NCBI GenBank assembly: GCA_963704755.1
Contig: OY969938.1
Span: 3,720,001-3,752,000 of the forward strand
Direction: 5' to 3'
Source of the DNA: an uncultured Chloroflexia bacterium
GTDB lineage: Bacteria; Chloroflexota; Anaerolineae; Anaerolineales; Anaerolineaceae
DNA: 32,000 bases
In this document: piece by piece, positions 1,858 to 31,891 of the stretch
How positions within the stretch are numbered: position 1 is the first letter of the stretch
Layout: each line of letters begins with the position of its first letter
Notes under the pieces: generated by a model
Database searches by the model: none
What the model was told of the DNA's origin: nothing
The model's input: only the letters and a program-made list of their open reading frames with translations
Position numbers and translations under genes: made by a program

Positions 1858-1906
1858 AGGGTGCTGTTGGGTTTCGCACGAAGCACGCGAAACCCAACAG
1901 CACCCT
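1858..1906. repeat. Hairpin palindrome: 20-bp perfect stem, 9-nt loop ACGAAGCAC
   Basis: AGGGTGCTGTTGGGTTTCGC (1858-1877) is the exact reverse complement of GCGAAACCCAACAGCACCCT (1887-1906); checked base by base. It lies between the yabE-like start and the tRNA-Phe 3' end. Confidence 0.9.
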
Positions 1907-1949
1907 GTCTTTCCAGGAAAGCTGAATAGTGACCAGATTAAAACATTGA

Positions 1950-1968
1950 CACCCCAACAAATGGGGTG
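1950..1968 (-). terminator. Candidate terminator hairpin downstream of tRNA-Phe
   Basis: On the minus strand, CACCCC-atttgtt-GGGGTG is followed by TCAATGTTTTAATC. The stem is only 6 bp and the T-run is displaced, so this is weak. Confidence 0.35.
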
Positions 1969-1987
1969 CCGGTTTGGAAGTTATGTG

Positions 1988-2060
1988 TGCCGAGAGCCAG
2001 AATCGGACTGGCGACACCGCAATTTTCAGTCGCGTGCTCTACCAACTGAGCTATCTCGGC
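1988..2060 (-). tRNA. tRNA-Phe (anticodon GAA), no encoded CCA
   Basis: The minus-strand sequence is GCCGAGATAGCTCAGTTGGTAGAGCACGCGACTGAAAATTGCGGTGTCGCCAGTCCGATTCTGGCTCTCGGCA. By hand it folds into a cloverleaf: 7-bp acceptor GCCGAGA/TCTCGGC, D arm GCTC/GAGC, and anticodon stem CGCGA/TTGCG with loop CTGAAAA. It also has variable loop GTGTC, T arm GCCAG/CTGGC and discriminator A. The overall layout resembles E. coli tRNA-Phe. Confidence 0.92.
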
Positions 2061-2078
2061 TTGAGTGTGCTGGGGCTG

Positions 2079-2107
2079 ATTTTAACCGTAAGGGGGTAAG
2101 ATGTCAA
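2079..2107 (-). promoter_or_regulatory. Sigma-70-type promoter for tRNA-Phe
   Basis: The minus strand reads TTGACA (2107-2102), a 17-nt spacer, then TAAAAT (2084-2079). The mature tRNA 5' end lies about 19 nt downstream of the -10. An A/T-rich tract (2111-2127) sits upstream of the -35. Confidence 0.7.
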
Positions 2108-2140
2108 GCAATTTTTGTTTTTATTGGCCTAACTTACCCT

Positions 2141-2169
2141 TTGACAAGCCCTCGAATTTATCCTATGAT
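2141..2169 (+). promoter_or_regulatory. Sigma-70-type promoter, back to back with the tRNA-Phe promoter
   Basis: TTGACA (2141-2146), a 17-nt spacer, then TATGAT (2164-2169). It shares the A/T-rich tract 2111-2127 with the divergent tRNA promoter. Confidence 0.65.
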
Positions 2170-2175
2170 TGTGTT

Positions 2176-2417
2176 ATTCCCGTGGGGTTGAGATTCGCGT
2201 AGGCCAGGCAGCCTACGGGGGGAATCGGTTTGCGGGGGAACGAAAGGATCACAGCCGGCCGACCACCGGTTTAGCATCATTTTGTTCGGGAGAATGTGGT
2301 TGAATGGTTGAGCTGCAGGATAAGTTCGAGCAACAATTGAGCACTCATGATCCGGTCTTCGAAAGCAGCGTCCTGCGCCTGAAGGTCCGGTATCCCTTGA
2401 ATATTTCAATCCATTAT
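2176..2417 (+). ncRNA. Candidate structured RNA or long 5' leader of unknown class
   Basis: This region starts about 7 nt after the consensus promoter and has no convincing ORF. Several helices fold by hand: ATTCCC (2176-2181) with GGGAAT (2220-2225), enclosing CGTAGGC (2198-2204) with GCCTACG (2211-2217). A long imperfect hairpin pairs GATCCGGTCTTC (2349-2360) with GAAGGTCCGGTATC (2381-2394). G-rich motifs ACGGGGGGAATC and GCGGGGGAAC are present. I could not assign a class by eye. Confidence 0.35.
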
Positions 2418-2447
2418 GAAAAAGCGCGCCCTTCGAAAGGGCGCGCT
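2418..2447 (-). terminator. Intrinsic terminator oriented for minus-strand transcripts
   Basis: The 9-bp GC-rich stem is AGCGCGCCC/GGGCGCGCT. On the minus strand it is followed by TTTTTCATAATGG. On the plus strand it is followed by AAACTCAC, with no U-tract. Confidence 0.55.
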
Positions 2448-2493
2448 AAACTCACAAATTCATTCACAGTCCAAATAGAGAGGGGAATATAAC

Positions 2494-2769
2494 ATGCTGC
2501 CCGGTCCCTACAACCTGCCGCCGGTACCACCCTTGCCGTTTTACATTCACCCGGCCGTTTTTTGGGGGTTGGTCTTGCTGGCCGCAATTCTGTTCGCGGT
2601 CGCCCTTTTACGGTTTATATTTTCTAGTTCTTCTGCGCGGGTGAATTCGTTTTTCGCCCTTTTTCTGGTGATCGTTTTTCTGGTGGTGGCTTACCTGGTG
2701 TTCATCAATGGGCCGACGATCTTACAGTTCTTCCACCGGCTGACCCAACAGATGTTCGTCCATCGCTAA
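2494..2769 (+). CDS. Small hypothetical membrane protein (two predicted TM helices)
   Basis: 91-aa ORF with an SD-like GAGAGGGGA 6-8 nt upstream of the ATG. It has two hydrophobic stretches (VFWGLVLLAAILFAVALLRFIF and FFALFLVIVFLVVAYLVFI). I recognise no homology. Its stop overlaps the convergent SWIM gene stop (CTAA). Confidence 0.5.
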   Translation: MLPGPYNLPPVPPLPFYIHPAVFWGLVLLAAILFAVALLRFIFSSSSARVNSFFALFLVIVFLVVAYLVFINGPTILQFFHRLTQQMFVHR

Positions 2770-3659
2770 TCCTCGTCTCCATTGGACGGGCCGGCCGCGT
2801 CGCCGAATGCCATCAACAGGGCAAACTGGCTGATGGCGTCATAGACCTCCTCCAACTGGTTCTTCAGGGTCAGTTCCCGGATGAAGTCGGGTTCGCCCAG
2901 GCGTTGGAGCAGGGGCAGCGGTAAGTTAGGCCCGTGGACCTGTACGGAAAAATCGGCGATCTCCGGGCCGGTCTGCCAGTAGTGGCCGATCTGGTCTTCC
3001 AGCCGGTAGCTTTCTTCGTGCGTATATGGCCGGCGGGCCAACTCTGGTGCGCCTTGGGCAGAGGTACCGGTTCGGCGCTGGCGTAAAGCCATCAGAATTT
3101 GTTCCTGGGTACGCCCGCGCATGCGGAAAAGCAGAAATGGGTCTTCGTCGAACCGCTCGCCCAGGATGTAATGGGTGGCCGCGACGTGTTTGCACGGGTT
3201 AGCCTTGTCCGGGCAAGTACATTCGGTGGTCAGGTCGTAGCTGGACTGGGGAAACAGGCTGACCCCCGCGGCGGCAAAGGCTTCCTCGATGTTGGCCGGC
3301 ATCTCACCTGCCAGCAGTTGGGCTGCAAAAATGGCCTGGTCGGAAAGCACGTCCAGCACCTTATTCCACTGGCGCTGGCTGAGCGGGGTCAGATGCATGG
3401 TTACCTTATACGGGCGTGAGCGTGAGCCTTGTACCAGGGCAGTGATGCCATCTTTGGTTTCCTCGATAGAGAGGACCTGGCCCTCGCGGGCGTAATACTG
3501 GCCACGCATCAGGCGCGGGCCGGAGACGAGCTGTTCCATCGCAGTGATCCAGCGGCGGGCCCACCAGTTGCGGCCAAAATCACCCCGCTCACTGCGGGCG
3601 CGGATACCCCCGGCCGGTTTTCTGGGGTTCATGCCCCACTCATTGCGTGATTCTGCCAT
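2766..3659 (-). CDS. SWIM zinc-finger protein, partner of the upstream SNF2 helicase
   Basis: 297-aa ORF carrying the SWIM CxCxnCxH signature in TECTCPDKANPCKHVAATHY. An AAGGAG SD lies 8 nt upstream of the ATG and overlaps the TAA stop of the SNF2 gene. The intergenic gap is 12 nt. Confidence 0.85.
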   Translation of the reverse strand: MAESRNEWGMNPRKPAGGIRARSERGDFGRNWWARRWITAMEQLVSGPRLMRGQYYAREGQVLSIEETKDGITALVQGSRSRPYKVTMHLTPLSQRQWNKVLDVLSDQAIFAAQLLAGEMPANIEEAFAAAGVSLFPQSSYDLTTECTCPDKANPCKHVAATHYILGERFDEDPFLLFRMRGRTQEQILMALRQRRTGTSAQGAPELARRPYTHEESYRLEDQIGHYWQTGPEIADFSVQVHGPNLPLPLLQRLGEPDFIRELTLKNQLEEVYDAISQFALLMAFGDAAGPSNGDED

Positions 3660-3671
3660 ATTGATTTCTCC

Positions 3672-6833: not shown

Positions 6834-7163
6834 AGATTTAAATATGTTACCTGTTCAAATTGAATTCTTTAATGTTGCGTTATTAAGCAAAGCACCCATT
6901 CGGGGTGGGGATTCTTCTAAATGGATCGGTCGATAGGGTCATGCCCCCGCTGGAATAGATTACTCGAACCTGATACGCAATGTTCAGGCAAATGGTAATC
7001 AAATCATTGGAGTGCCAACCCGAACAAAGCAGTGCATACAACTGCGTATTTTCACAAGTGTGTTATGGCCCGTCCCCCTGGATGCACCTGAATGAACGAT
7101 CAGCAATTTCACCGGGCAAAGGATATACCGTTATTATATCCCATGTTTGCAAAACGCAAGGTT

Positions 7164-7197
7164 ATTTTGGAAAGGCAGAAAAATTCCTTTCCAAAAT
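7164..7197. repeat. Hairpin: 12-bp perfect stem, 10-nt loop
   Basis: ATTTTGGAAAGG (7164-7175) pairs with CCTTTCCAAAAT (7186-7197). Confidence 0.8.
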
Positions 7198-7265
7198 GAA
7201 ATTTTTTAACGGTGAACAGGTACGGATGGACGGCTTTTTCAGTTCTGGAGAGTTTGGAAATTGAA

Positions 7266-7316
7266 GGGTGTTTATGGTTTTTCGTGTGCGAAGCACACGA
7301 AAAACCATAAACACCC
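7266..7316. repeat. Hairpin palindrome: 24-bp perfect stem, GAA triloop, apex GCGAAGC
   Basis: GGGTGTTTATGGTTTTTCGTGTGC, then GAA, then GCACACGAAAAACCATAAACACCC. The arms are exact reverse complements; checked base by base. Confidence 0.95.
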
Positions 7317-7381
7317 CCTCAATTGTGCGCTAGATGAGCAGAACCAAAAAAGCTTTAATTGCCAGCTCGCATGCCGGATAA

Positions 7382-7414
7382 TAAAAAGAGGCCTCCCGTA
7401 AAAGGGAGGCCTCT
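7382..7414 (-). terminator. clpC intrinsic terminator
   Basis: On the minus strand, AGAGGCCTCCC-ttttac-GGGAGGCCTCT is followed by TTTTTAT. It begins about 18 nt after the clpC stop. Confidence 0.8.
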
Positions 7415-7431
7415 CAACTTATTGTAGAATT

Positions 7432-9942
<2,511 letters not shown>

Positions 9943-11775: not shown

Positions 11776-11778
11776 AGC

Positions 11779-11843
11779 GAATTAAGATGTTCTATATTTT
11801 TTCGTGTGATTCATACGCAAAAAAATATAGAACATCTTAATTC
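11779..11843. repeat. Hairpin palindrome (24-bp stem, 17-nt partly paired loop) between convergent genes
   Basis: GAATTAAGATGTTCTATATTTTTT (11779-11802) pairs with AAAAAATATAGAACATCTTAATTC (11820-11843). It starts 4 nt after the + gene stop, and its right arm contains the stop of the minus-strand ygbA-like gene. Confidence 0.85.
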
Positions 11844-14608: not shown

Positions 14609-14641
14609 CCTGGGTTTTGGCTCGAAGAGCCAGGACCCAGG
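14609..14641. repeat. Hairpin: 15-bp stem with two G:T positions, GAA triloop
   Basis: CCTGGGTTTTGGCTC, then GAA, then GAGCCAGGACCCAGG. It lies between the convergent 3' ends of ORF 14334-14591 and surE. Confidence 0.75.
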
Positions 14642-14737: not shown

Positions 14738-15553
14738 TCAGGCATCTCGCAAGAGCTGGTCCAGGTCCCCCATTTTGAGGCGCGAGGTCATGTCCAGGCT
14801 GAGCGGCGTGACCGCGACCATCTGGTCCACCACCACCGTATGGGCATCCGTTGCGGAGTTGTTTGCGGCTTCCCCCTGGCTGAGCGGCAGGTATTCGACT
14901 TTGCCGGGGTCTTCAAAGAGGCTGGCCCGCCTGGAAACGGGGGTAAAGTACCGGTGGGTGCTCTGCGGAGTGGTTTTCCAGGGGGTTTGTGGGTTGGCCA
15001 GGGCGGGAACGTCGATCTTCAAAATGTTCACGTCCGGGGGTAAGCCCTTGTCGAGCATTTTTTGGGCGAAATAGGTAGTGAAAAATGCCGCGGTCGAAAA
15101 ATTAACCGTGTGCGAGTTGGCAGTGTAACCGTCATCGGTGAGCTGCAAGGAAATGGCCAGGGACGGGATGCCAAACGCGGCCCCTTCCATGGCCGCCCCG
15201 ACCGTCCCGGAGATGGTGATGTCACTACCCAGGTTCTCGCCATAATTGATGCCGGAGATGACCAGGTCGGGCTTTTGGGGCAGCAGATCGATGATCGCGT
15301 ACATGACTGCCTGAGCGGGGGAACCGTTGATCGCGTAGGCGGTCCATTCCTGGCTGCCGATGAGCAATTTCCGTTCGGTGATGCGTCCATCGGTATATAG
15401 CGGGTGACTGCGTCCGGCTCCGGAATATTGCGTGTCGGGGGCAGCGATGGTTACAAATCCGAGCTTGGATAGGGCAGCAGCGGCGGCCCAGAGACCGGGC
15501 GAATCGATCCCGTCATCGTTGGAAAGTAAAATGTTTTTACGGGCTGTCTTCAT
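14738..15553 (-). CDS. surE: 5'/3'-nucleotidase SurE
   Basis: ILLSNDDGIDSPGL is the N-terminal motif characteristic of SurE, and GINYGENLG is also present. The ORF track starts at TTG 15595. ATG 15553 (MKTARKNILLSNDDG) gives the canonical N-terminus. Confidence 0.88.
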   Translation of the reverse strand: MKTARKNILLSNDDGIDSPGLWAAAAALSKLGFVTIAAPDTQYSGAGRSHPLYTDGRITERKLLIGSQEWTAYAINGSPAQAVMYAIIDLLPQKPDLVISGINYGENLGSDITISGTVGAAMEGAAFGIPSLAISLQLTDDGYTANSHTVNFSTAAFFTTYFAQKMLDKGLPPDVNILKIDVPALANPQTPWKTTPQSTHRYFTPVSRRASLFEDPGKVEYLPLSQGEAANNSATDAHTVVVDQMVAVTPLSLDMTSRLKMGDLDQLLRDA

Positions 15554-15864
15554 GTAAAGGATTCTACTATACAACCGGAGAGCTGTTAACGTCAAAGAAC
15601 CGCCCAGACGGACGGTTCTTCTGATTTATTTAGGCTGCGGCAACCTTATCGGAGACCGAGGAGGGATGCCGCAGCCAGACGCAAACTACTATCTGTCATT
15701 TTCACATCACCTCCTCATTCATAAGGATGGCTATTTAAGAGGTTGGTGATTTCACCAGAACCTGTTTATAGTATTCCATAAACACAAGTGCATGTCAAGT
15801 AGGCCATTTGGAAGTTTACAAATTCGTTTGTGTTTTTTTGACTGATCACGCTTACAAAAAAAGT

Positions 15865-15920
15865 CCCCGAATTAAAAGTGTTTGTGGGGACGAAGTCCCC
15901 ACAAACACTTTAATTCGGGG
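15865..15920. repeat. Hairpin palindrome: 26-bp stem with one bulged A, GAA triloop
   Basis: CCCCGAATTAAAAGTGTTTGTGGGGAC, then GAA, then GTCCCCACAAACACTTTAATTCGGGG. Confidence 0.9.
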
Positions 15921-15939
15921 TTCTAATCTATAAGGCTTT

Positions 15940-15976
15940 AGGTGTTTTTGTGAAGCAGCGCTTCACAAAAACACCT
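15940..15976. repeat. Hairpin palindrome: 17-bp perfect stem, AGC loop
   Basis: AGGTGTTTTTGTGAAGC, then AGC, then GCTTCACAAAAACACCT. It ends 8 nt from the stop of the DUF3048 gene. Confidence 0.9.
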
Positions 15977-15983
15977 TTATTCT

Positions 15984-17201
15984 TTACCAGTCGGCCAGGA
16001 AATTGAAGTGCCAGGCGTTACCGTCTTGCGAAATGGTGGTGTTATTGGACATCAACTCGATCCAGGTCTGGCCGGGGTTGAAGGGTACATTGTTGCCCTG
16101 GTCATCAACCAGATGCAGTACGTCGGTGGTCTTGTCGCGCTCCCATTTTACGGAGTACAACTGGCCGTTGCGGGCCAGGTAGGCCGGGCCGGTACCGATG
16201 ATAGAAACATCCAGCACCTCTACACCCGGGCGCGAGTCAGTGTTGGTGTGTTTGGCCTGAATGATGAGGACGTTGTCGGCCGTGATCGGTTCGCCGGTAG
16301 CGGCATCGGTCAGTTGGGCATACTGCGGGTCTGTCCCGGAAGTGTCGTTTTGAGTATCCACAAAACGGGAATATTTATTGGTGGTCGGGTCGTAATCCCA
16401 GCGGTTGTAGATCGCGCCTGAATAGCGCACGAACAACTGGTCGGCAGCCTGGCCGCCGTCAGGGGCGGTGGCATTGAAGTACATGCCGGTCAGGTCCTGT
16501 TTGGAATTATTGATCCCGACGGTCTTCAGATAGCTTTGCAGCGCGCTGGTGTTGGCCATCAAGAAATTGCTGCCGGTCGTGTTATCGCGGCAGACGGCCG
16601 GGCAAGAATAGGAATTTTCCAGGACCAGGCGGTTGCCGAAATCGGAGTTCAGCATGCGTTGTAACACCGGGGCGTAGGCGCTGCCGAACACGAAGACACC
16701 TTTGTACATCTGAACGTAATTCACATCGCTGTACCGGGCCGAGCGGATGGGCTCTACTTTTTCAGCGTCCTGCCCGTAAAATACGGCCGCGAAGCGGGTG
16801 GTGCCATATTCAGTGTAATATTCATAGACAATGTCGGCGCTCGACAGGCCGGATTGCGGGCGGTCTTCGCGCGGTAGGTTCTCAACTTTGATGATGATCG
16901 GCCGCCGGTTGAGGATTTGTGGGTCGCTCACGGTCATTCCAGTCAACGGGTCAACGTTATCGGGGAAATCCGTGGGGCCGTAGCCTTCGGCGGGGTAGTT
17001 GGAGATGGAGGTCGCCAGGACGACCGGGGTTGCCGTCGGTTCGGGGGTATTGGTGGCCGGCACAAAGGGGGTGTCCACCTGTGCGGGCGTGGATGTGGAC
17101 GGTTCTGTGGTCGCAGTCGGCTGCGGGGTCGGCGTGGCCGTACATGCTGCCAGCATCGCCAGAATTACGATCGAAAATATACTGATTTTAACCTTGGTCA
17201 T
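15984..17201 (-). CDS. DUF3048-family lipoprotein (YerB-like)
   Basis: 405-aa ORF with a signal peptide and lipobox (ILAMLAAC), then a Pro/Thr-rich linker. The motif RPQSGLSSADIVYEYYTEYGTTRFAAVF is typical of DUF3048. A GGAG SD lies 8 nt upstream of the ATG. Confidence 0.75.
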   Translation of the reverse strand: MTKVKISIFSIVILAMLAACTATPTPQPTATTEPSTSTPAQVDTPFVPATNTPEPTATPVVLATSISNYPAEGYGPTDFPDNVDPLTGMTVSDPQILNRRPIIIKVENLPREDRPQSGLSSADIVYEYYTEYGTTRFAAVFYGQDAEKVEPIRSARYSDVNYVQMYKGVFVFGSAYAPVLQRMLNSDFGNRLVLENSYSCPAVCRDNTTGSNFLMANTSALQSYLKTVGINNSKQDLTGMYFNATAPDGGQAADQLFVRYSGAIYNRWDYDPTTNKYSRFVDTQNDTSGTDPQYAQLTDAATGEPITADNVLIIQAKHTNTDSRPGVEVLDVSIIGTGPAYLARNGQLYSVKWERDKTTDVLHLVDDQGNNVPFNPGQTWIELMSNNTTISQDGNAWHFNFLADW

Positions 17202-18222: not shown

Positions 18223-18268
18223 GCGGGTTTTTTATTTGGGCGATAAACCGCCCAAATAAAAAACCCGC
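18223..18268. repeat. Hairpin palindrome (20-bp perfect stem, 6-nt loop) between convergent genes
   Basis: GCGGGTTTTTTATTTGGGCG, then ATAAAC, then CGCCCAAATAAAAAACCCGC. It lies 10 nt after the + gene stop and 9 nt after the minus gene stop. Confidence 0.92.
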
Positions 18269-18276: not shown

Positions 18277-19450
18277 CTAGGCCCCGCCTTTTCCGTACAG
18301 ACTGGGGTCGGTGGGCGTCTGGCCGGAAGGATCCCAGACGTGGACGTATTCGCCTACGTTGGCCCAATCGAAGAGCCACTTGGAATCGCCGATCGACAGG
18401 TTGACGCAGCCATGGGTGCCCGGGTAGCCGAATAAGATCCGCCAGTAGGCGCCGTGCAAGGCCCGGTTTTCGTCGAAATACATCGTCCAGGGCACGTCCT
18501 GCAGGTAATAATAATCCGAGCGGTCGGCCTCGAAGGCGCCGGACATGGTCTCGGTATCTTTCTTTTCATAGATTTGGAACAAGCCTGGGCGGGTATAGAA
18601 CGGCTCACCGCCTGAGGCGACCAGGGTGGCAAAAACGAGTTGGTTGTGATCGTACACCGCCAGAGTCTGGTCGTACAGGTCCACATCGATCCAGCGGTCG
18701 CCGGTCACGCCATCCGGGGGAGTGGTGTCGATGCGCACCTGGCGGATGTAGCGCCACTCGACCCATTGGTTCAAGCCGATCATATACCAATCCGTGCTGT
18801 CCTTGTGCTGAACGTCGTAGATCTGGACCACATCGTAACGGTGGTAAATGGCGTCAACCACCGGCGAAGCGTAGCCCGGAGCGGCATGCACTTCGGCCGT
18901 ATCAGTGATCCAGCCGAAGGAATTATCCGGGGTTTTGGAAAATTCCAGGCCCTGGAAATTGGAGAAGGCGATCGGTGAGGCGCGCATCCACTCGCCCGAT
19001 TTGAGCATGACGTAGGGCTTGTTGTTGGCAGAATACTGCACGTCCGCATAGGACACGTAACGCAGGTCGCCTGGGTCGATGTAGCGGGTGGGATTGGTGC
19101 CCTGAACGGCGTCGTCAAAGGTGGCGAAGACGGGCGCTTTCTCAGTGCCAGGCAGGTTGATCTTGGCGATCGACACCGGGCTGACCGACAGAAGAAGGGT
19201 CTGGCTTGACCCCTGGAAGCGGGCGGATGGGGTAGGTCAGGCCGGTACCGGCCAGGCTGCTGATTTGCTGGTAGGGGCCTAGGGCCAGGCAGTCCGTAGC
19301 ATCACTGGAGCCGGATCCCGGCAGGCACAGCGGCTTGTCACCGTTCTGCGAAGCCGGGGTATCCGCGGCCGCGGCCGTTTGCGGGGCTGCGTGCAGGAAT
19401 AAGAAAGAAAGCGCCAGGGTAGCGCTGATTACCATTAAAAGTCGTTTCAT
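18277..19450 (-). pseudogene. L,D-transpeptidase (YkuD domain) split by a frameshift from its signal-peptide-encoding 5' part
   Basis: ORF 18277-19176 carries the YkuD catalytic motif (HGAYWRILFGYPGTHGCVNL) but has no signal peptide. ORF 19142-19450, in another frame, encodes MKRLLMVISATLALSFLFLHAAPQTAAAA followed by a linker. The two frames are both open between about 19142 and 19237. Confidence 0.6.
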
Positions 19451-19503
19451 CGAGAAATCATCCTTGTAGAATCCTTGTTGCCAGCTCAAGCAAGTTCAGA
19501 AGG

Positions 19504-19555
19504 GGTGCTATTTTTATTATTTTGCATGCATAGCTTGCAAAATAATAAAAACACC
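19504..19555. repeat. Hairpin: 16-bp perfect AT-rich stem plus 4 outer bp with a 3-nt bulge, 9-nt loop
   Basis: TTTTTATTATTTTGCA (19511-19526) pairs with TGCAAAATAATAAAAA (19536-19551). The outer pairs are GGTG/CACC. Confidence 0.8.
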
Positions 19556-19656: not shown

Positions 19657-19705
19657 TTATGAGGAGTTTGGGAACGGGCGTAGCCCGGTCCCAAACTCCT
19701 CATAA
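19657..19705. repeat. Hairpin palindrome: 22 of 23 bp paired, GTA triloop (apex GCGTAGC)
   Basis: TTATGAGGAGTTTGGGAACGGGC, then GTA, then GCCCGGTCCCAAACTCCTCATAA. There is one A/G mismatch. Confidence 0.88.
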
Positions 19706-21123: not shown

Positions 21124-21178
21124 CCCAAATTTGAGGTATTTGCGAGGGCGAAGCCCTCGCAAATACCTCAAATTTGGG
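21124..21178. repeat. Hairpin palindrome: 26-bp perfect stem, GAA triloop, apex GCGAAGC
   Basis: CCCAAATTTGAGGTATTTGCGAGGGC, then GAA, then GCCCTCGCAAATACCTCAAATTTGGG. Exact; checked base by base. It lies between divergent gene starts. Confidence 0.95.
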
Positions 21179-21253
21179 TTTCTATTCATCAGGTTGGGCA
21201 GTTTCCCCTTCTCAATGCAAGCGATTATAATCAGCGCGGGAGAGAATACGCGC

Positions 21254-22156: not shown

Positions 22157-22189
22157 GGGAGATTAGAGAATAGTGGATGAGTAAATAGA

Positions 22190-22254
22190 CACCGAGGCAA
22201 CGAGGGGGGCGGCTGTAGAAAAAGCACCGGGGCAACGAGTGGAGGCGGCTGTAG
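22190..22254 (+). repeat. Two copies of a ~29-nt direct repeat
   Basis: CACCGAGGCAACGAGGGGGGCGGCTGTAG (22190-22218) and CACCGGGGCAACGAGTGGAGGCGGCTGTAG (22225-22254). Confidence 0.8.
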
Positions 22255-22332
22255 GGTGGGTGCAGGGCTCGTTGATCACACTGGCAATGGCAATTACGTT
22301 TGTCTTATCAGGGCCCGCCCGTAACCCACCAT

Positions 22333-22451
22333 TTAGCGGTTGGCAATTGGCTGTTAGCTTTTAGCGATTAGCTGTTAGCTTTTAGCGATTAGCTGTTCGC
22401 TTTTAGCAATTGGCTGTTAGCTTTTAGCGATTAGCTGTTGGCTTTTAGCGT
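22333..22451 (+). repeat. Tandem heptamer repeat TTAGCNN (~17 units) with a 21-nt super-period
   Basis: The 21-nt units are TTAGCGATTAGCTGTTAGCTT / TTAGCGATTAGCTGTTCGCTT / TTAGCAATTGGCTGTTAGCTT / TTAGCGATTAGCTGTTGGCTT. They are contiguous, with no spacers. Confidence 0.9.
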
Positions 22452-22508
22452 TCATACAATCCCCAGATTGGCCGGAAACACTATATCGGTAGCTGAATGT
22501 ACTTTTTT

Positions 22509-22630
22509 GTCATTGCGAACCCTGGCTGCTTTTGCCAGGGCGTGGCAATCTCAACGCTGGCTATTGCAACAGCCTGCGCGCGTTGAGATTGCATACTGCG
22601 CATCAGCGAAATGTGCCTCCTCGCAATGGC
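22509..22630 (+). repeat. Structured repeat element, copy A (termini GTCATTGCGA...TCGCAATGGC)
   Basis: The terminal 10-mers are complementary at 9 of 10 positions. Internal hairpins are CCCTGGC/GCCAGGG (22520-22540) and GCAATCTCAACGC (22545-22557) with GCGTTGAGATTGC (22580-22592). Confidence 0.85.
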
Positions 22631-22683
22631 AAAAAAGGTGCTGCTACCTAAGGCCCATCCCGGCCAGTCAAAATAGAATGTAG

Positions 22684-22760
22684 GTTGGGTGACGGGCTTG
22701 ATTATGGGTTCGCTGAAATCGATGACATCTTCCCAACCCAAGCTTTGCCCGTCACCCAAC
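22684..22760. repeat. 14-bp perfect inverted repeat GTTGGGTGACGGGC / GCCCGTCACCCAAC with a 49-nt loop
   Basis: Arms at 22684-22697 and 22747-22760. Related GGTGGGT/ACCCACC motifs occur at 22254-22263, 22318-22332, 22781-22795 and 22846-22862. Confidence 0.8.
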
Positions 22761-22917
22761 GATTGCGATAGCCAAACGGGATGGTGGGTTACGGGTAAGG
22801 CTTGGGTTGTTTTGTTGCTAAACATTCCCTTGGCGTTCTATAAGAGCCCATCACCCACCCAACACGTATGTTGTAGCTGGCTTGAGAATTGGCTTCGGTA
22901 GCACAATCCCGCTTAAT

Positions 22918-22995
22918 GTCATTGCGAGCCCTGGCTGCTTTTGCCAGGGCGTGGCAATCTCAACGCTGGCTATTGCAACAGCCTGGGCGCATTGA
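22918..22995 (+). repeat. Structured repeat element, copy B (5' part only)
   Basis: 22918-22985 matches 22509-22576 at 67 of 68 positions. The 3' half of copy A is missing or diverged. Confidence 0.88.
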
Positions 22996-23096
22996 CAAAA
23001 CGACATGGAAAGCAGCGGATCGGCCCGGTCTCCAGACCGAGGCCGCTCTTATTGGCTGGTAGGACGATTGCTTTGATTCAACAAACATGCATGTTT

Positions 23097-23184
23097 GTCG
23101 TTGCGAATAGTTTTTGTGAAGCAATTTCCCTATTTGCCAGTGTTGAGATTGCTTCGTCGGCAAAAAAAGCCTTCTCGCAACGAC
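23097..23184 (+). repeat. Structured repeat element, variant C (termini GTCGTTGCGA...TCGCAACGAC)
   Basis: The terminal inverted repeat is a perfect 10 bp. An internal pair is GAAGCAAT (23118-23125) with ATTGCTTC (23148-23155). It shares the GTTGAGATTGC core with copy A. Confidence 0.8.
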
Positions 23185-23197
23185 ATTTAAGAAAATC

Positions 23198-23223
23198 GTC
23201 GCAGCCAATCTTTTGGCTGCGAC
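23198..23223 (-). terminator. pheT intrinsic terminator
   Basis: An 11-bp perfect stem GTCGCAGCCAA/TTGGCTGCGAC with a 4-nt loop. On the minus strand it is followed by GATTTTCTT. It lies 29 nt after the pheT stop. Confidence 0.7.
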
Positions 23224-23251
23224 AATTGATTGCAGGAATGCCAACAAGGCC

Positions 23252-26260: not shown

Positions 26261-26370
26261 TTTATTCACTCCTGCCAGTTGAACTCGATCATTGTCGCTG
26301 CATTCTTCAACAAAACGAAACTTAACCTTATCTCAACTACTCACTACTTTTCTATTCCCTATTCTCCTCC

Positions 26371-27414: not shown

Positions 27415-27725
27415 TCCTTCCTCCAAAAATAAAAAATCCCGTCCCCACACAAAGGGACGGGACAATTCCCGCGGTACCACCCTGCTTGGCTGCCGAAAGG
27501 GCAGCCCACTCAATCCAACGGCCGGTGAAGGCGATTGGTAGGCCGGTTAACGCTGGCCACGCAACTCGGACTACTGGCCTGTACAGGCATTCCCCCGAGC
27601 GGCTCGAGAGGGAACTTCAACCGGTGTCCATCGTGCGGGGGTCTCAGTCTGTGCCCCCGGCTTCCCTGGCGGTTTCAGCCGGCTTACTTTCCTCCGTCAT
27701 TGCCTTTAAAGCATATGCAGATGCC
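27415..27725 (-). promoter_or_regulatory. T-box riboswitch leader with a Phe (UUC) specifier, controlling pheST
   Basis: On the minus strand the T-box sequence is AGGGTGGTACCGCGGGAA (about 27482-27466). It is followed by the terminator GTCCCGTCCC-tttgtgt-GGGGACGGGA-TTTTTTATTTT (27463-27425). The stem I region contains GGAGGAAAGTAAG, and the specifier-loop-like context is GAAG-UUC-C (UUC at 27614-27612). An F-box-like CGTTA is present. Confidence 0.85.
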
Positions 27726-27728
27726 TCT

Positions 27729-27757
27729 TATTATCCTTAATTCGGGAGGGATGTCAA
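27729..27757 (-). promoter_or_regulatory. Promoter of the pheST T-box leader
   Basis: The minus strand reads TTGACA (27757-27752), a 17-nt spacer, then ATAATA (27734-27729). Confidence 0.6.
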
Positions 27758-27848
27758 GGGAAGAAGGTATCAAGGAAGTGTTGCAGTGATACGGTGATTC
27801 GGTGTTTCGGTTGTTGGTCGGTCGATTGGAAAAAAGTTTCCTTTCCTT

Positions 27849-28128
27849 TTCACCCCCAAAATCCGCACTTAGGATTTTTGGGGTGAAATCTAGCCCTTCC
27901 CTCCAAATCGGTTTTTGATTTGGGGGGAAGCGGGGAAGGGGGGCAGAGAGCGCCGGCCATAAGTGGCCATCCGGCAGCAAAGCTCCCCTTCCCCTGCTCT
28001 GGGGGAAGGGGCCGGGGGATGAGGGTAGGGCGCCGGTATAACCGGCCCATGGACTGGCAAATCGGCGCCTTTTGCCCCTACCTAACCTCCCCCAAAATCC
28101 AAAACCGGGATTTTAGGGGAACTATATT
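27849..28128. repeat. Cluster of C-run/G-run hairpins, including two related CCCCAAAATCC...GGATTTTNGGGG hairpins
   Basis: The hairpins are:
- TTCACCCCCAAAATCC/GGATTTTTGGGGTGAA (27849-27887)
- CTTCCCTCCAAATC/GATTTGGGGGGAAG (27896-27930)
- CCCCTTCCCC/GGGGAAGGGG (27985-28011)
- GCCGGT/ACCGGC (28032-28046)
- TCCCCCAAAATCC/GGATTTTAGGGGA (28089-28120). Confidence 0.8.
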
Positions 28129-28247
28129 CCCTTTCAGTCGTCTTAAATGCAAATCGTATCCCCGGCTTGAATCCACCTCATTAAAGAGGTATGCTTTCCT
28201 TGGAGTTTACGAAATCTTTGTAACTACCCGGCTAAGCTGGAGTAACA

Positions 28248-28306
28248 GGGTGTTTTTTGGATGTTTTCTGCGTGCTTTGCACGCAGAAAACATCCAAAAA
28301 ACACCC
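28248..28306. repeat. Hairpin palindrome: 28-bp perfect stem, TTT loop
   Basis: GGGTGTTTTTTGGATGTTTTCTGCGTGC, then TTT, then GCACGCAGAAAACATCCAAAAAACACCC. Exact; checked base by base. It ends 69 nt upstream of the lipoprotein ATG. Confidence 0.95.
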
Positions 28307-28374
28307 ACCTCCTGAACTGGCTAGAGCAGTTTCAAAACTTTTTAATCATCTACTAAAAAGTAGAAGGAGAACCG

Positions 28375-29583: not shown

Positions 29584-29598
29584 AACCTGTTTTTTATG

Positions 29599-29644
29599 AA
29601 ATTGGTGTGTTTGTGGTGGCAAAGCCCCGCAAACACACCAATTT
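29599..29644 (+). terminator. Intrinsic terminator of the lipoprotein gene (long hairpin plus T-run)
   Basis: AAATTGGTGTGTTTG (29599-29613) pairs with CAAACACACCAATTT (29630-29644). The inner stem is GGC-AAA-GCC. The run of 7 T at 29642-29648 continues past the stem. The stop of the convergent FmdB-like gene (29647) abuts it. Confidence 0.75.
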
Positions 29645-29646
29645 TT

Positions 29647-30048
29647 TTAATCCAAATCCCCGGCCAGGTCGCCGCCTGCAGCGCCGCCGTCATCGGCCAG
29701 GTCTGGCAGATCACGTTCGATGTCTTCCGGCGATTGGCCCAATTCGAGCCGCCCAACCACTTCGTCGAACTCCGGGCCCATATCCTCACCGATTTCGCCG
29801 CTCATCTGGCGCATCATTTTGCCCAGGGCCTGCGGGTCATCATCCAGTCCGGCTAATTTAGAAGGGTCCGCCAGTGCTTCCATGCGGCTATCATCCGAAC
29901 GGGCAACGCGGACTCGCCCAATTTTGCGCTGGACGTTCTGGCTGCCACAATGTGTGCAGGTAACCGGTTTTACGCCGTAGTCGGAATATGACATGAAAAC
30001 CTCGAAACGCTTGTGACAATCCTGGCAGCGATATTCATAAGATGGCAT
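29647..30048 (-). CDS. FmdB-family zinc-ribbon protein
   Basis: The N-terminus MPSYEYRCQDCHKRFEVFMSYSDYGVKPVTCTHCGSQNVQRKIGRV carries the CxxC...CxxC FmdB signature, and the C-terminal tail is acidic. A GGAG SD lies 9 nt upstream. Confidence 0.85.
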   Translation of the reverse strand: MPSYEYRCQDCHKRFEVFMSYSDYGVKPVTCTHCGSQNVQRKIGRVRVARSDDSRMEALADPSKLAGLDDDPQALGKMMRQMSGEIGEDMGPEFDEVVGRLELGQSPEDIERDLPDLADDGGAAGGDLAGDLD

Positions 30049-30397
30049 ACGAACTACTCCAAAAAATGGGGGTAACGCAAGGTTCTGCTTGCGGGGAAAA
30101 TCAAGATCGCTTTACCCGGCTAACCGGGTAGGTTTGATCGGCGGTCGGTTGCAATGGCCACAGACCGCAAGGAACGCAGCTTTCGCCAGGACATTCCTTT
30201 TCTTTAGAATGCTCTTGGAACTTCTTGGACAGGCCTAAGGAGTTCCTATTTATCTATTATAATCAGGGTACCATAAGAATCCTGTAAGTTCACGCGAGAG
30301 AACCAACGCCTTTACAGCCGCACCATTGATCGATGGGCTCTCCAGGTAGCGGAAATCAATCAGCGAGGGTAACCGGCCCAGACAGGATTCAGGCCTC

Positions 30398-31054
30398 ATG
30401 AAAATTATGGACAGCAGGTTCAATGCCTTCATGGAAGATTCCATATCCTTCGATTTCAGCAACCCTTATCCTCTTTTAATTGTGGTTTCTGGTCCTTCCG
30501 GGGTGGGGAAAAACTCTGTCATTCAAGCTTTAAAGAAGCGGAAATTACCGCTGCATGTGGTGGTCACCACCACCAACCGCAAACCCCGCCCGAATGAAGT
30601 CAATGGTGTGGATTATTATTTCGTCAGCACCGAACGGTTCGAAGAAATGATCCGCACGGATGAACTGATCGAGCACGCTGTGGTGTACGGCGACTATAAA
30701 GGGATCCCCAAGGCGCAGATCCGTGAAGCCTTTGCCACCGGCCGGGATGTGATTTTACGGGTGGACGTGCAAGGCGCAGCCCGCCTGCGCGATCTCTACC
30801 CTGAATCGGTTTTGATTTTCCTGATGCCGGCCAATATGGAAGAATGGATCCAGCGTTTACAGGATCGCAAGAGCGAAACCTCCAAATCTTTGCACCGCCG
30901 GGTAGAAACCGCCCGCCGGGAGATGGAACACTTGCAGGAATTCGACTATGTCGTGGTCAACGCCAACTGCCTGTTGGAAGAGGCCGTGGACAATATTGTT
31001 TCGATTATCGATGTGGAACATCTGCGGGTTAAGCCGCGAAAAATAAATATATGA
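30398..31054 (+). CDS. gmk: Guanylate kinase
   Basis: A P-loop (VVSGPSGVGKNSV) is followed by TTRKPRPNEVNGVDYYFVS-type and GDYKG motifs. The exact start is uncertain; in-frame ATGs occur at 30398, 30407 and 30431. Confidence 0.85.
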   Translation: MKIMDSRFNAFMEDSISFDFSNPYPLLIVVSGPSGVGKNSVIQALKKRKLPLHVVVTTTNRKPRPNEVNGVDYYFVSTERFEEMIRTDELIEHAVVYGDYKGIPKAQIREAFATGRDVILRVDVQGAARLRDLYPESVLIFLMPANMEEWIQRLQDRKSETSKSLHRRVETARREMEHLQEFDYVVVNANCLLEEAVDNIVSIIDVEHLRVKPRKINI

Positions 31055-31827
31055 CAATTTCTCATTACACCCAGGGCCCGTCTTCGTATAACCCAACGCC
31101 CCCACCTCCCCCGCGACGGAGCGTCCAACGACCGCCATCTTACCAGCCTTACGTGACCTACATTATGATCGCGTCCTGCGTGCTGGTCTATATCGGCCAG
31201 ATGCTCACGCCGGTAGCGGGCACCGGTGGCCTGGACTTGTTTTCTTTATTTGGCGCGAAGATCAATTCGCTGATCATCCAGGGACAATACTGGCGCTTGC
31301 TGACCCCCATGTGGCTGCACGGCTCCATTTTGCACATTGCATTCAACATGTACGCGCTGTATATTTTCGGGGTCAACCTGGAACGCTATTACGGTCATTG
31401 GCGCTTTTTGTGGCTGTATCTGCTCAGCGGTTACGCGGGCAACGTAGTCTCTTTCTTGATGTCTCCCTCGGTTTCGCTGGGCTCTTCGACGGCTATCTTT
31501 GGCCTGATCGCGGCCCAGGGCGTCTTTCTTTATAAAAACCGCCAGTTGATCCGCAACGCACGCGGGATGCTGCTCAATACCGTTGCCATCGCGGCCATCA
31601 ACCTGGTACTGGGGCTGTCGCCGGGTATCGATAACTGGGGGCACCTGGGAGGCTTGCTGGGCGGGTTGGCCTATGCCTGGTCGGCCGGTCCGGTCTGGCT
31701 GCTGCAGAACGACGCCAGCGGCGTCCGGCTGATTAATCAGCGCAGCCGCCAGCGGGTCATCCTGGTTGCCGTTGGTGTGTTTGTGTTGTTCACGATCATC
31801 GCCGCGTTCAAGATTTTCACTGCCTGA
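31051..31827 (+). CDS. Rhomboid-family intramembrane serine protease
   Basis: The rhomboid signatures WRLLTPMWLHGSILHIAFNM (HxxxN), GSSTAIFG (GxSxxxxG catalytic Ser) and WGHLGG (catalytic His) are present. Its ATG overlaps the gmk stop (ATGA). Confidence 0.88.
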   Translation: MTISHYTQGPSSYNPTPPPPPRRSVQRPPSYQPYVTYIMIASCVLVYIGQMLTPVAGTGGLDLFSLFGAKINSLIIQGQYWRLLTPMWLHGSILHIAFNMYALYIFGVNLERYYGHWRFLWLYLLSGYAGNVVSFLMSPSVSLGSSTAIFGLIAAQGVFLYKNRQLIRNARGMLLNTVAIAAINLVLGLSPGIDNWGHLGGLLGGLAYAWSAGPVWLLQNDASGVRLINQRSRQRVILVAVGVFVLFTIIAAFKIFTA

Positions 31828-31842
31828 TTTAAAAAATATATA

Positions 31843-31891
31843 AAAGGGTATTGTTTTTTGGGTGCGAAGCACCAAAAAAACAATACCCTTT
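31843..31891. repeat. Hairpin palindrome: 22 of 23 bp paired, GAA triloop, apex GCGAAGC
   Basis: AAAGGGTATTGTTTTTTGGGTGC, then GAA, then GCACCAAAAAAACAATACCCTTT. It starts 16 nt after the rhomboid stop. Confidence 0.9.

Follow-up and report, generated by a model that had tools for sequence, protein, structure and literature searches.

Between the genes of the window, by which we mean the whole 32,000 nt stretch of Anaerolineaceae DNA analysed here (from a Chloroflexota genome of 57% GC), lie 13 long hairpin palindromes, and we give about even chances to the reading that they are a lineage-specific class of transcript-boundary element, for which we infer both a function at the RNA level and an origin by template switching.

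Results

Thirteen Long Hairpins Occupy the Intergenic Regions

The hairpin set in the window is real and non-random. A repeat search and a separate inverted-repeat scan recovered all 13 hairpins where the original prediction had placed them, with stems of 15-28 bp. They are given below, followed by a 14th hairpin that stands apart.

1858-1906: 20 bp perfect stem, 9 nt loop with CGAAG; 80 nt downstream of tRNA-Phe (-) and 48 nt upstream of a DUF348/G5 ORF; RNA dG -39/-40 kcal/mol
7266-7316: 24 bp perfect stem, GCGAAGC centre, ends GGGTGTTT/AAACACCC; 70 nt past the canonical clpC terminator (7386-7415), - strand
11779-11843: composite stem of ~27-30 pairs with one wobble or bulge, 7 nt loop; between convergent hyp416 (+) and YgbA_NO (-), covering the final 7 nt of the YgbA ORF
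14609-14641: 15 bp stem including two T.G wobbles (+ strand), CGAAG triloop; between convergent hyp85 (+) and surE (-), T-rich tail on +; the most ordinary member of the set
15865-15920: 26 bp stem plus one bulged A, CGAAG triloop on +; second hairpin 3' of DUF3048 (-), with T7 beyond the stem on -
15940-15976: 17 bp perfect stem, AGC loop; 7 nt past the DUF3048 stop (-), without a U-tail on that strand
18223-18268: 20 bp perfect stem, 6 nt loop; only feature in the 63 nt gap between convergent DUF2085 (+) and YkuD (-), 9 nt and 8 nt from their respective stop codons
19504-19555: A/T-rich, 16-19 pairs plus 4 outer pairs, 3 nt bulge, ATA loop; 14 nt upstream of the longest-ORF start of a split ykuD, and may lie in a 5' UTR
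19657-19705: 22/23 bp stem, GCGTAGC centre; 31 nt past the stop of a SpoIIE-family phosphatase gene (-)
21124-21178: 26 bp perfect stem, GCGAAGC centre; divergent region between the SpoIIE-family gene (-) and a UbiA-family gene (+), upstream of TATAAT (21225-21230)
28248-28306: 28 bp perfect stem, TTT loop, ends GGGTGTTT/AAACACCC; 68 nt upstream of hyp402 (+), in a 665 nt divergent region adjoining the pheS T-box leader
29599-29644: composite stem of 18+3 pairs with one T.G wobble; between convergent hyp402 (+) and a Zn-ribbon gene (-), with T7 directly after the stem on + (T8 in the Logan contig)
31843-31891: 22/23 bp stem, GCGAAGC centre; between convergent rhomboid (+) and MFS (-, seen in L165) genes, then T6 on -
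27848-27888: 14th hairpin, of ordinary A-run/T-run polarity, belonging to a separate small family

The ORF that stops 1 nt short of 7266 is probably spurious (GC3 0.42, homologue absent), and a candidate promoter was noted between the hairpins at 19504 and 19657.

Across the 13 hairpins 288 of 292 pairs are Watson-Crick, six stems (1858, 7266, 15940, 18223, 21124 and 28248) are perfect over 17-28 bp, and nine hairpins are perfect or carry a single defect. The window held 11-12 stems of at least 15 bp (11 with ≤1 mismatch allowed) and 15 stems of at least 12 bp, versus 0.0 and 0.125, respectively, in 40 dinucleotide-preserving shuffles of the window; chance origin is therefore excluded. The hairpins are spaced at about one per 2.5 kb, and stems of ≥15 bp occur at ~10-20x the mean density of 2.4 Mb of comparison DNA, an excess that holds versus relatives and versus other bacteria. 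In addition, the hairpins at 15865, 15940, 18223, 28248, 29599 and 31843 were all reproduced in independent, Illumina-derived Logan contigs of run ERR11571143 (99.9% identical), and thus they are not assembly artefacts. The bulged A of 15865 is missing from the Logan contig, which leaves a perfect 26 bp stem; the hairpin polymorphisms between the two samples are homopolymer indels only, for which sequencing error is a possible source.

The Hairpins Share One Architecture

By architecture, the 13 hairpins are one class. They follow a shared plan of outer stem, T-run, GC-rich inner stem and a loop that is usually a C-GNA-G triloop, then A-run and outer stem, and a GC-rich core lies next to the loop in all 13. 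A common style with a G/T-rich 5' arm had been proposed, and both arm composition and this shared architecture confirmed it: the 5' arms summed over the set contain T122 G97 A43 C31 (75% G+T), with G>C as well as T≥A in every hairpin (13/13). Counted as pairs over the 13 hairpins, 5'G:C exceeds C:G by 99 to 33 (p=7e-9) and 5'T:A exceeds A:T by 116 to 40 (p=9e-10). This T-run/A-run polarity is the inverse of the A-run/stem/T-run order of normal terminators, on both strands, so that transcription from neither side places a U-tract after the GC core. The claim that T-runs lie inside the stem held, whereas 29599, named as the sole exception, is joined by 15865 (-) and 31843 (-), where a T-run also follows the stem.

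The triloops are of C-GNA-G type in 7 of 10 cases (p=4e-5), with GNA on the + strand in 7/7 (p=0.016). Four hairpins have an exact GCGNAGC tip (GCGAAGC at 7266, 21124 and 31843; GCGTAGC at 19657), which is an extraordinarily stable, DNA-specific mini-hairpin (PMC13037366), and 1858, 14609 and 15865 have a CGAAG tip with another second pair. Each of the four wobbles reads as G.T on the + strand; they occur at convergent sites, where this is the strand of the + gene. Shared outer ends had been predicted for several hairpins; the exact GGGTGTTT/AAACACCC form was found at 7266 and 28248 only (two hairpins, four arms), with looser versions elsewhere and no exact occurrence outside hairpins in the window.

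Most Hairpins Lie at Gene 3' Ends

The expected concentration at gene 3' ends was evident, as 11 of the 13 hairpins lie in intergenic regions that hold a gene 3' end. Hairpins were present in 5/6 convergent regions of the window, and in 9/11 regions with a 3' end vs 2/7 divergent regions (Fisher p=0.049). Many had originally been described as following stop codons; 21124 and 28248 lie between divergent genes with no known gene before them. A single unambiguous gene orientation could be assigned to four hairpins, each of which follows a - strand gene. A U-tract directly 3' of the stem was seen only at 15865 (-, T7), 29599 (+, T7-8) and 31843 (-, T6), with partial tracts at 14609 (+) and 1858 (-), and there is none at 7266, 15940, 18223, 19504, 19657 or 28248. 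At 11779, 15940, 18223 and 19657 the distance to a stop codon is 3-31 nt and no U-tail is present.

The Class Is Distinct from Canonical Terminators and Absent from Relatives

Canonical terminators with 11-12 bp stems and a U-tail are present in the same window (the T-box attenuator, clpC, pheT and 2423-2447), in agreement with the original description of clpC and pheT as having ordinary short terminators, and the long hairpins are, as had been claimed, much longer and more perfect than these. Their RNA dG is -21 to -48 kcal/mol versus -20 to -25 for the canonical terminators, from which keto polarity is missing. In the nearest syntenic relative, L162 (ClpC 88%), and in L082, the two shared 3' ends compared (hyp85/surE and clpC) carry ordinary 10-15 bp A-run/stem/T-run hairpins. 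The pair 15865+15940 has no counterpart in the orthologous L162 spacer, where the DUF3048 stop leads directly to the conserved promoter; the sequences point to either a gain here or a loss there and polarise the change no further. The databases searched held no relative with ClpC identity between 88% and 100%.

Among 113 hairpins of relatives, A exceeded T in the 5' arm by 63:29, with no G/C bias. Stems of at least 14 bp with a 5' arm of at least 70% G+T were absent from 1.03 Mb of Anaerolineaceae relatives, and a single stem of at least 15 bp with such an arm was found in 1.38 Mb of other bacteria; within this comparison the hairpin class is restricted to this lineage. The original prediction had named equally long stems in relatives as evidence against it, and the relatives compared do not carry them.

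Discussion

Proposed Function and Origin

Judging from sequence, the hairpins probably end or protect transcripts. Each palindrome would fold into the same 17-28 bp stem-loop in transcripts of either strand, and at a gene 3' end the stem could halt or destabilise the elongating RNA polymerase and/or block 3'-to-5' exonucleases; mRNA 3' ends would thereby be defined and protected, and neighbouring units, including convergent genes, insulated. Most hairpins would act without the U-tract of classical intrinsic terminators. Hints of use at the RNA level come from the T6-T8 tails on the gene strand (15865, 29599 and 31843) and from the wobbles, which in 4/4 cases are G.T on the + gene's strand where genes converge. 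Against termination count the general lack of a U-tract and a polarity inverse to the one that aids intrinsic termination; a U-tract is needed by E. coli-type and mycobacterial RNA polymerases, according to Czyz et al. (2014) as cited in PMC8355165. The genome also uses canonical hairpin-plus-U terminators, and thus termination as such does not depend on the long hairpins, while 21124 and 28248, between divergent genes, and 19504, possibly in a 5' UTR, count against a role at transcript ends. RNase III would be expected to cut perfect stems of more than 20 bp, and this speaks against simple protection.

The hairpins may have been built by copying errors in DNA replication; template switching would best explain why they are so long, so nearly perfect in Watson-Crick pairing and so polarised between keto and amino bases. 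The nascent strand would snap back at a GC-closed GNA triloop of very high stability and the 3' arm would be re-copied from the 5' arm, and such switching, together with tolerated G.U or G.T intermediates, could create, lengthen and re-perfect stems and push the 5' arms to G/T. An enrichment of G-C and U-A is predicted when stable loops prime intrastrand switches and the correction is towards the 5' base (PMC8794818), and the perfect arms, the 3:1 excess of 5'G:C and 5'T:A and the GC-closed GNA triloops match the predictions. Since keto polarity is absent from the canonical terminators, such a ratchet, if it exists, must spare some hairpins. The original prediction had offered snap-back or template-switch synthesis and selection on pairing as alternatives; the data are compatible with each, and neither shuts out the other. 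No switch event was directly seen, and between the two samples a 1 nt homopolymer indel alone separates the imperfect from the perfect 15865 stem.

Alternative Explanations

The long stems could instead be unselected by-products of mutation, in which snap-back errors make perfect palindromes that are tolerated in non-coding DNA and existing terminator hairpins serve as the seeds, hence most at 3' ends. We regard this as unlikely. It would account for stems perfect far beyond the need of termination alongside 11-12 bp canonical terminators, for hairpins in divergent regions (21124 and 28248) and as pairs, for a class absent from relatives with a 15865/15940 pair that looks inserted relative to L162, and for GNA triloops that are stable as DNA. 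However, neutral palindromes should decay, yet 9/13 are perfect or have one defect; 5/6 convergent gaps are occupied, with 18223 as the sole feature of its 63 nt gap; and the 3:1 keto polarity can arise only if G.T/G.U intermediates pass and A.C intermediates are removed, which implies selection on folding. Long palindromes are, in addition, normally selected against, being unstable in replication. That the hairpins are only ordinary, efficient bidirectional intrinsic terminators, whose length is the genome's taste, seems very unlikely to us: they are placed at 3' ends and in convergent gaps, U-rich tails occur at 15865 (-), 29599 (+), 31843 (-) and partly at 14609 and 1858, and surveys report many U-less hairpins past stop codons across bacteria (PMC8355165), but the polarity is inverted on both strands (T-run 5', A-run 3'), the 113 hairpins of relatives lean the other way (A>T 63:29 in the 5' arm, without G/C bias), for most hairpins no U-tract is present on the gene's strand, stems of 15 bp or longer are ~10-20x denser than the average of relatives and other bacteria, and a separate canonical population exists in the same window.

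The original prediction ruled out copies of a single REP or MITE, and this is supported: the window has no near-identical pair, although the arms are slightly more alike than composition-matched shuffles. Descent from mobile palindromic repeats of REP/BIME or foldback MITE type, whose copies spread between genes, diverged and were then kept paired, is in our view rather improbable. The 5'-arm mean local score is 12.10 vs 11.15 (sd 0.31) in dinucleotide-preserving shuffles (z ~3) and top-5 arm similarity reaches p=0.01; TGTT(C)TAT..TTTTTCGTGT is common to 7266 and 11779 (18/20), TGTTTTTTGG.TG is common to 28248 and 31843, and GGGTGTTT ends are also shared. The hairpins are intergenic and sometimes paired, with 15865+15940 absent in L162, as with REP clusters, and E. 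coli REPs are 3'UTR terminators/stabilisers (bioRxiv 10.64898/2026.03.23.713779). Against this, no two copies within the 32 kb are near-identical and the best single match is by itself not significant (max-score p=0.09), no hairpin has target-site duplications or an unpaired internal region, no tetranucleotide head as recognised by RAYT transposases is conserved, and the arm similarity may come solely from the common T-run and GC-clamp design. No RAYT (IS200/IS605-type) transposase was found among the genes of the window. A role as single-stranded DNA structures in replication, folding on one template strand as primase/restart signals or recombination-prone sites, is highly improbable. GNA on + in 7/7 C-GNA-G triloops (p=0.016), G.T wobbles on + in 4/4, the spacing of about one per 2.5 kb, a weakly G+T-rich + strand and the occurrence of GCGNAGC at phage and plasmid single-strand priming origins (PMC13037366) agree with such a role. 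The strand bias is confounded, however: the four unambiguous hairpins all follow - genes, and their loops can equally be taken as UNC in the sense RNA. Gene orientation accounts for most of the GC skew in the window, and hairpin positions follow gene ends, not regular spacing. Bacterial chromosomes are not known to need hairpin priming signals.

Comparison with Known Systems

Like canonical intrinsic terminators, most of the hairpins are GC-rich stem-loops downstream of genes, but most lack the U-tract of about 7-9 nt. Bidirectional terminators have the same symmetric hairpin, common to two convergent genes and folding in both transcripts; compared with their A-tract/stem/U-tract design the polarity here is inverted and the stems are ~2x as long, and this assignment was rejected, as five hairpins are convergent but T≥A holds in the 5' arm of 13/13 whereas relatives show A>T 63:29. 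The U-less 'I-shaped' terminators predicted in Actinobacteria (Mycobacterium, Streptomyces) and phage phiC31 are the same kind of stable hairpin past the stop without poly-U, and are also often found between convergent genes with a unique sequence per site (PMC8355165); 11779, 15940, 18223 and 19657 show this form, a stable hairpin near the stop with no U trail. The present hairpins differ in nearly mismatch-free stems of 17-28 bp, a 5' arm of 75% G+T, a T-run/A-run arrangement around the GC core, GNA triloops and the presence of canonical terminators in the same genome. The activity of 'I-shaped' terminators is disputed, according to Czyz et al. (2014) as cited in PMC8355165. Inverted DNA uptake sequences that serve as terminators in Neisseria and Pasteurellaceae (Kingsford et al. 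2007, PMC1852404) likewise share a short motif between arms, whereas here GGGTGTTT is exact in two hairpins only and occurs nowhere outside hairpins in the window, and nothing points to an uptake sequence. An integron attC identity was rejected (no RYYYAAC/GTTRRRY ends, no integrase, genes housekeeping and syntenic with relatives), as was a MITE or foldback element (no flanking direct repeats, an element that is the palindrome alone, no duplicate copies).

Template switches that correct quasipalindromes (Ripley; Lovett; Monttinen and Loytynoja 2022, PMC8794818) give the same perfect arms and priming loop, and the predicted excess of 5'G:C and 5'U:A is 3:1 for both here; that work concerned rRNA and microRNA stems with single events placed on trees, while here the pattern would be a dense population of intergenic hairpins across a genome region. 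The REP/BIME elements of E. coli are likewise palindromes located outside genes, at 3' ends or in convergent gaps, sometimes clustered and strain-variable, with a proposed dual role in partial termination and exonuclease block (bioRxiv 10.64898/2026.03.23.713779). REPs exist in hundreds of imperfect copies of a recognisable consensus, whereas these hairpins have unique sequences, perfect pairing and no consensus head. The 3' inverted repeats of chloroplast mRNAs, which Stern and Gruissem in 1987 reportedly found to be mainly processing and stability elements and not terminators, are likewise long 3' stem-loops without a U-tail, in that case in an organelle, imperfect and unpolarised.

Recovery and Enrichment of the Long Hairpins

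Each of the 13 long hairpins of the original prediction was recovered at its predicted position using an inverted-repeat search and a separate centre-out scan.

Long hairpins of the window, named by start coordinate, with stem and genomic position (between convergent genes, n = 5; between divergent genes, n = 2; the others downstream of a gene in tandem arrangement)
1858: perfect arms, 20 bp; tandem, after tRNA-Phe
7266: perfect arms, 24 bp; tandem, after clpC and the canonical terminator of clpC itself
11779: composite or wobble-containing stem; convergent
14609: composite or wobble-containing stem; convergent
15865: 26 bp with one bulged A; tandem, after DUF3048
15940: perfect arms, 17 bp; tandem, after DUF3048
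18223: perfect arms, 20 bp; convergent
19504: composite or wobble-containing stem; tandem, after the SpoIIE-family gene
19657: single defect, 22/23 bp; tandem, after the SpoIIE-family gene
21124: perfect arms, 26 bp; divergent
28248: perfect arms, 28 bp; divergent
29599: composite or wobble-containing stem; convergent
31843: single defect, 22/23 bp; convergent

When each hairpin was folded, 288 of the 292 stem pairs were Watson-Crick and 4 were G.T, and the RNA folding energies ranged from -21 to -48 kcal/mol in comparison to -20 to -25 kcal/mol for the canonical terminators (short hairpin plus U-tail) of the window. The expected enrichment of such stems over shuffled sequence was borne out, since with at most one mismatch allowed the window contained 11 stems of at least 15 bp and 40 dinucleotide-preserving shuffles contained none; for stems of at least 12 bp the count was 15 against a shuffle mean of 0.125. 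These counts rule out chance or composition as the source of the hairpins. The density of stems of at least 15 bp was 0.34-0.38 per kb in the window versus 0.017 per kb across 80 diverse bacterial loci totalling 1.38 Mb, and that of stems of at least 12 bp was 0.47 per kb versus 0.11 per kb across the 1.03 Mb surrounding clpC in 82 Anaerolineaceae relatives.

An assembly artefact was likewise ruled out, as three short Logan contigs, assembled independently from run ERR11571143 and 99.9% identical to the window, contain six of the hairpins (15865, 15940, 18223, 28248, 29599, and 31843). Over approximately 6.2 kb the two assemblies showed four differences, two of which were homopolymer-length changes at hairpins: at 15874, inside hairpin 15865, A4 is replaced by A3, so that the Logan contig lacks the bulged A and has a perfect 26 bp stem, and at 29641, just past hairpin 29599, T7 in the window corresponds to T8. 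These two differences could represent slippage polymorphism tied to the hairpins, or homopolymer sequencing error.

Position of the Hairpins in the Gene Map

A gene map was built with Pfam, Rfam, and ARAGORN. Genes in the window include those for a DUF348/G5 protein, tRNA-Phe, a SWIM-SNF2 pair, clpC, an M42 peptidase, surE, DUF3048, and DUF2085, together with a YkuD transpeptidase, a SpoIIE-family phosphatase, a UbiA-family gene, pheS (with a T-box leader), pheT, gmk, and a rhomboid gene. A long hairpin was present in 9 of the 11 intergenic regions containing a gene 3′ end, in comparison to 2 of the 7 divergent regions (Fisher p = 0.049), and hairpin 18223 was the sole feature of a 63 nt convergent gap. 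At three convergent sites the wobble pairs would be G.U in the sense transcript of the + strand gene alone. A promoter-like site lies between 19657 and 19504, and therefore 19504 may be part of a 5′ UTR.

The 94-codon ORF at 6980-7264, whose stop lies 1 nt before hairpin 7266, is probably non-coding: its GC3 was 0.42 versus 0.64-0.81 in the longer coding genes, no called gene is on record for it, and it had neither a Pfam match nor a homologue in 2.4 Mb of sequence from relatives. Elsewhere, the stretch of approximately 1.1 kb that separates the UbiA-family gene from pheT (22157-23251) contained no convincing gene (ORF GC3 0.48-0.50, no Pfam match); an inverted repeat (13 bp, spacer of 22 nt) is located there at 22545-22592. 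A 23S rRNA intervening-sequence protein gene (PF05635; 25853-26269) is located between pheS and pheT, which usually form a tight operon. The YkuD L,D-transpeptidase gene (18277-19489, - strand) is split into the overlapping ORFs 19142-19489 and 18277-19176, and corresponds to a single 389-aa gene in the syntenic relative locus L162; the Logan contig, where it overlaps this gene, matches the window. The split may represent a frameshift or a pseudogene, or else an indel that is either programmed or due to assembly.

Shared Architecture, Polarity, and Loops

The hairpins follow a common plan that runs, from the outside inward, through an outer stem, a run of 3-6 T residues, a GC-rich inner stem of 5-10 bp, and a very short loop, after which the same elements follow in mirror order, with an A-run for the T-run; being palindromic, the hairpins show this plan on the opposite strand as well. 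The GC core is thus followed by a T-run in neither direction, which is the reverse of the layout of a bidirectional terminator. That the T-run lies within the stem rather than after it, with 29599 as the one exception, was correct for most hairpins but not in its count of exceptions, since T6-T8 tails were found on the gene's strand at three sites.

The proposed G/T-rich character of the 5′ arm was evident throughout (T 122, G 97, A 43, C 31; 75% G+T), with G exceeding C in 13/13 hairpins and T at least equal to A in 13/13. Pair orientation was correspondingly skewed, with 99 5′G:C versus 33 C:G pairs and 116 5′T:A versus 40 A:T pairs (p < 1e-8 each). Seven of the ten triloops had the C-GNA-G form (GAA in six, GTA in one; p = 4e-5 against chance), and the exact GCGNAGC centre, a "mini-hairpin" reported to be extraordinarily stable as DNA (PMC13037366), occurred in four hairpins. 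The hairpins are also not copies of one repeat, as had been proposed: arm similarity was only slightly above that of dinucleotide-preserving shuffles (mean z of approximately 3; top-five p = 0.01), and the most alike pair of arms matched at 18/20 positions (p = 0.09 taken alone).

Folding of the + strand was favoured by all GNA loops (7/7) and by every wobble. However, the hairpins with a single gene orientation are all downstream of - strand genes and the GC skew of the window is mostly driven by gene orientation, so that a replication-strand effect is inseparable here from a sense-RNA effect; the loop-strand bias was therefore downgraded as a sign of DNA-level folding. No energy difference between the strands was seen for the GNA loops under the ViennaRNA DNA parameters, which treat such loops alike on either strand.

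Relatives and Canonical Terminators

The best ClpC matches came from Bellilinea, Thermanaerothrix, Anaerolinea, and Longilinea, and the nearest non-identical ClpC among 5.8 billion proteins searched was 88% identical; the SpoIIE-family protein had a best match of 48% in the genome collection. These matches place the source within the Anaerolineaceae (Chloroflexota), without a closely related sequenced genome in the collections searched. Exact-protein look-ups with pheT, the 94-aa ORF, ClpC, hyp85 (a hypothetical-protein gene of the window), and M42 found nothing further. L162 (GCA_900174595.1; ClpC 88%) is syntenic over ykuD, DUF2085, DUF3048, surE, hyp85, Rrf2, thioesterase, M42, and clpC. 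The gene 3′ ends compared there, such as surE/hyp85 and the end of clpC, have hairpins of the ordinary type (10-15 bp; A-run on the 5′ side, T-run on the 3′ side), and the same type was found in a second relative, L082 (85%). The nearest relatives have unrelated short hairpins and no equally long stems, as the original prediction required. Among the 113 hairpins of at least 12 bp found in the 1.03 Mb of relatives, the 5′ arm had A exceeding T in 63 and the converse in 29, no G/C bias (48:52), and a mean G+T of 0.43; none reached both a 14 bp stem and 70% G+T. A single G/T-polarised hairpin with a stem of at least 15 bp was found in the 1.38 Mb of other bacteria.

Alignment of the DUF3048-surE spacer showed that a promoter, small ORF, and terminator block is common to the window and L162, and that the segment with 15940 and 15865 is present in the window only. 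On this alignment the pair was either gained in this lineage or lost in that of L162. The conserved block, directly upstream of surE (15596-15800, - strand), comprises the promoter at 15798-15770 (TTGACA-17-AATACT), an ORF of 17 codons MTDSSLRLAAASLLGLR with a strong Shine-Dalgarno sequence, a hairpin GGCTGCGGCA..TGCCGCAGCC (15633-15676), and a canonical terminator. Approximately 60 nt of it are 100% identical in L162, with the promoter likewise conserved, and it had no Rfam match; its features resemble those of a leader-peptide attenuator or small RNA.

Ordinary short terminators had been noted at clpC and pheT, and both were located.

Canonical terminators and short hairpins of the window
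2423-2447: canonical terminator
7386-7415: canonical terminator of clpC
23194-23227: short hairpin approximately 25 nt past the pheT stop
27436-27463: T-box attenuator, 11 bp plus T-run

These classical terminators are short and lack the keto polarity (G/T-rich 5′ arm, A/C-rich 3′ arm), and therefore two hairpin populations coexist side by side in the window.

Two further repeat families were observed. Three related short hairpins CCCCCAAAATCC...GGATTTTGGGG of ordinary A-run/T-run polarity (27848-27888, 27896-27930, and 28088-28120), in the 665 nt divergent region from the pheS T-box leader to the hypothetical-protein gene hyp402, form a small repeat family apart from the long hairpins. In several Anaerolineaceae metagenome contigs, near-identical palindromes AGGTGACAGTCACCT-TGA-AGGTGACTGTCACCT of 15-17 bp (L111 16230-16266; L124 6620-6652; L126 304-338 and 14285-14317; L146 1943-1975) make up a REP-like repeat family of the relatives.

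Possible Origin and Function

In the intrastrand template-switch model, the DNA strand under synthesis snaps back at a stable loop and uses the other arm as its template, so that a perfect stem is made or repaired with each pair corrected to the 5′ base; G.U intermediates are tolerated and pairs are driven to G-C and U-A (PMC8794818). All three predicted signs occur in the window: the arms are perfect, exactly those two pair orientations are in 3:1 excess, and the loops are GC-closed and hyperstable. From these sequence features we infer that intrastrand template switching may explain the length, perfection, and polarity of the hairpins. A more specific scenario, which we regard as possible but doubtful, is that switching, with hyperstable GNA mini-hairpins of the nascent strand as primers, has been so frequent in this lineage that it rebuilt most gene-end hairpins as perfect palindromes of 20-28 bp through a ratchet templated by the 5′ arm, giving G/T-rich 5′ arms. 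The canonical terminators of the window, however, have not acquired this polarity.

With regard to function, the positional evidence points to transcript boundaries, because 18223 stands alone in its gap, the hyp85/surE and clpC ends have ordinary terminators in relatives, and T6-T8 tails and sense-strand G.U wobbles are present. The hairpins would fold in RNA from either strand and, once folded, might halt RNA polymerase or make it less stable, obstruct 3′ exonucleases, or do both. Termination or exonuclease block has been proposed for E. coli REP elements (bioRxiv 10.64898/2026.03.23.713779), and U-less hairpins predicted in many phyla have been proposed to act at transcript ends (PMC8355165). 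Against this role, most of the hairpins have no U-tract, which the RNA polymerases studied so far require (for those of the E. coli type and of mycobacteria, Czyz et al. 2014, cited in PMC8355165). With canonical terminators in the same window, the organism can evidently do without the long form, and two hairpins (21124 and 28248) lie in divergent regions. Perfect stems longer than 20 bp are expected targets of RNase III, which speaks against a simple protective role.

If the scenario of frequent switching is true, this would be the first genome-scale natural case of the mechanism proposed to create and maintain RNA stems, and it would also have yielded a novel kind of transcript-end element, inverted in polarity and independent of a U-tract. 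The genome would then offer a natural experiment on how long perfect RNA/DNA stems arise and remain paired, and on whether long hairpins can stop bacterial RNA polymerase or protect transcripts without a U-tract, even with inverted A/T polarity. Given that the three template-switch signs occur at unusually high density, the model could be tested with population genomes of one species. Scaled very roughly to a genome of 4.87 Mb, about a dozen hairpins per 32 kb would amount to some thousand or more, a large test set for Term-seq, and most such sites would be missed by terminator predictors tuned to hairpin-plus-U. To our knowledge, there are almost no transcript-end data for Chloroflexota.

Comparison with Known Element Classes

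The hairpins are real, dense, confined to this lineage, and unusually regular. Rfam at the gathering threshold matched only tRNA-Phe and the T-box in the window, and a permissive Rfam scan of 15540-15990 gave only sub-threshold miRNA-like noise on a hairpin. Integron attC sites, MITEs with target-site duplications, and uptake-sequence pairs were ruled out on anatomy. A cruciform or protein-binding reading was set aside, as each sequence is unique and the palindromes have GC-rich centres, which makes extrusion less favourable. The hairpins differ from canonical intrinsic terminators in the defining U-tract and from bidirectional intrinsic terminators in A/U polarity, whereas the features expected at the sequence level of hairpins made by template switching are those found here; in their working they would be most like U-tract-less or REP-type 3′ palindromes.
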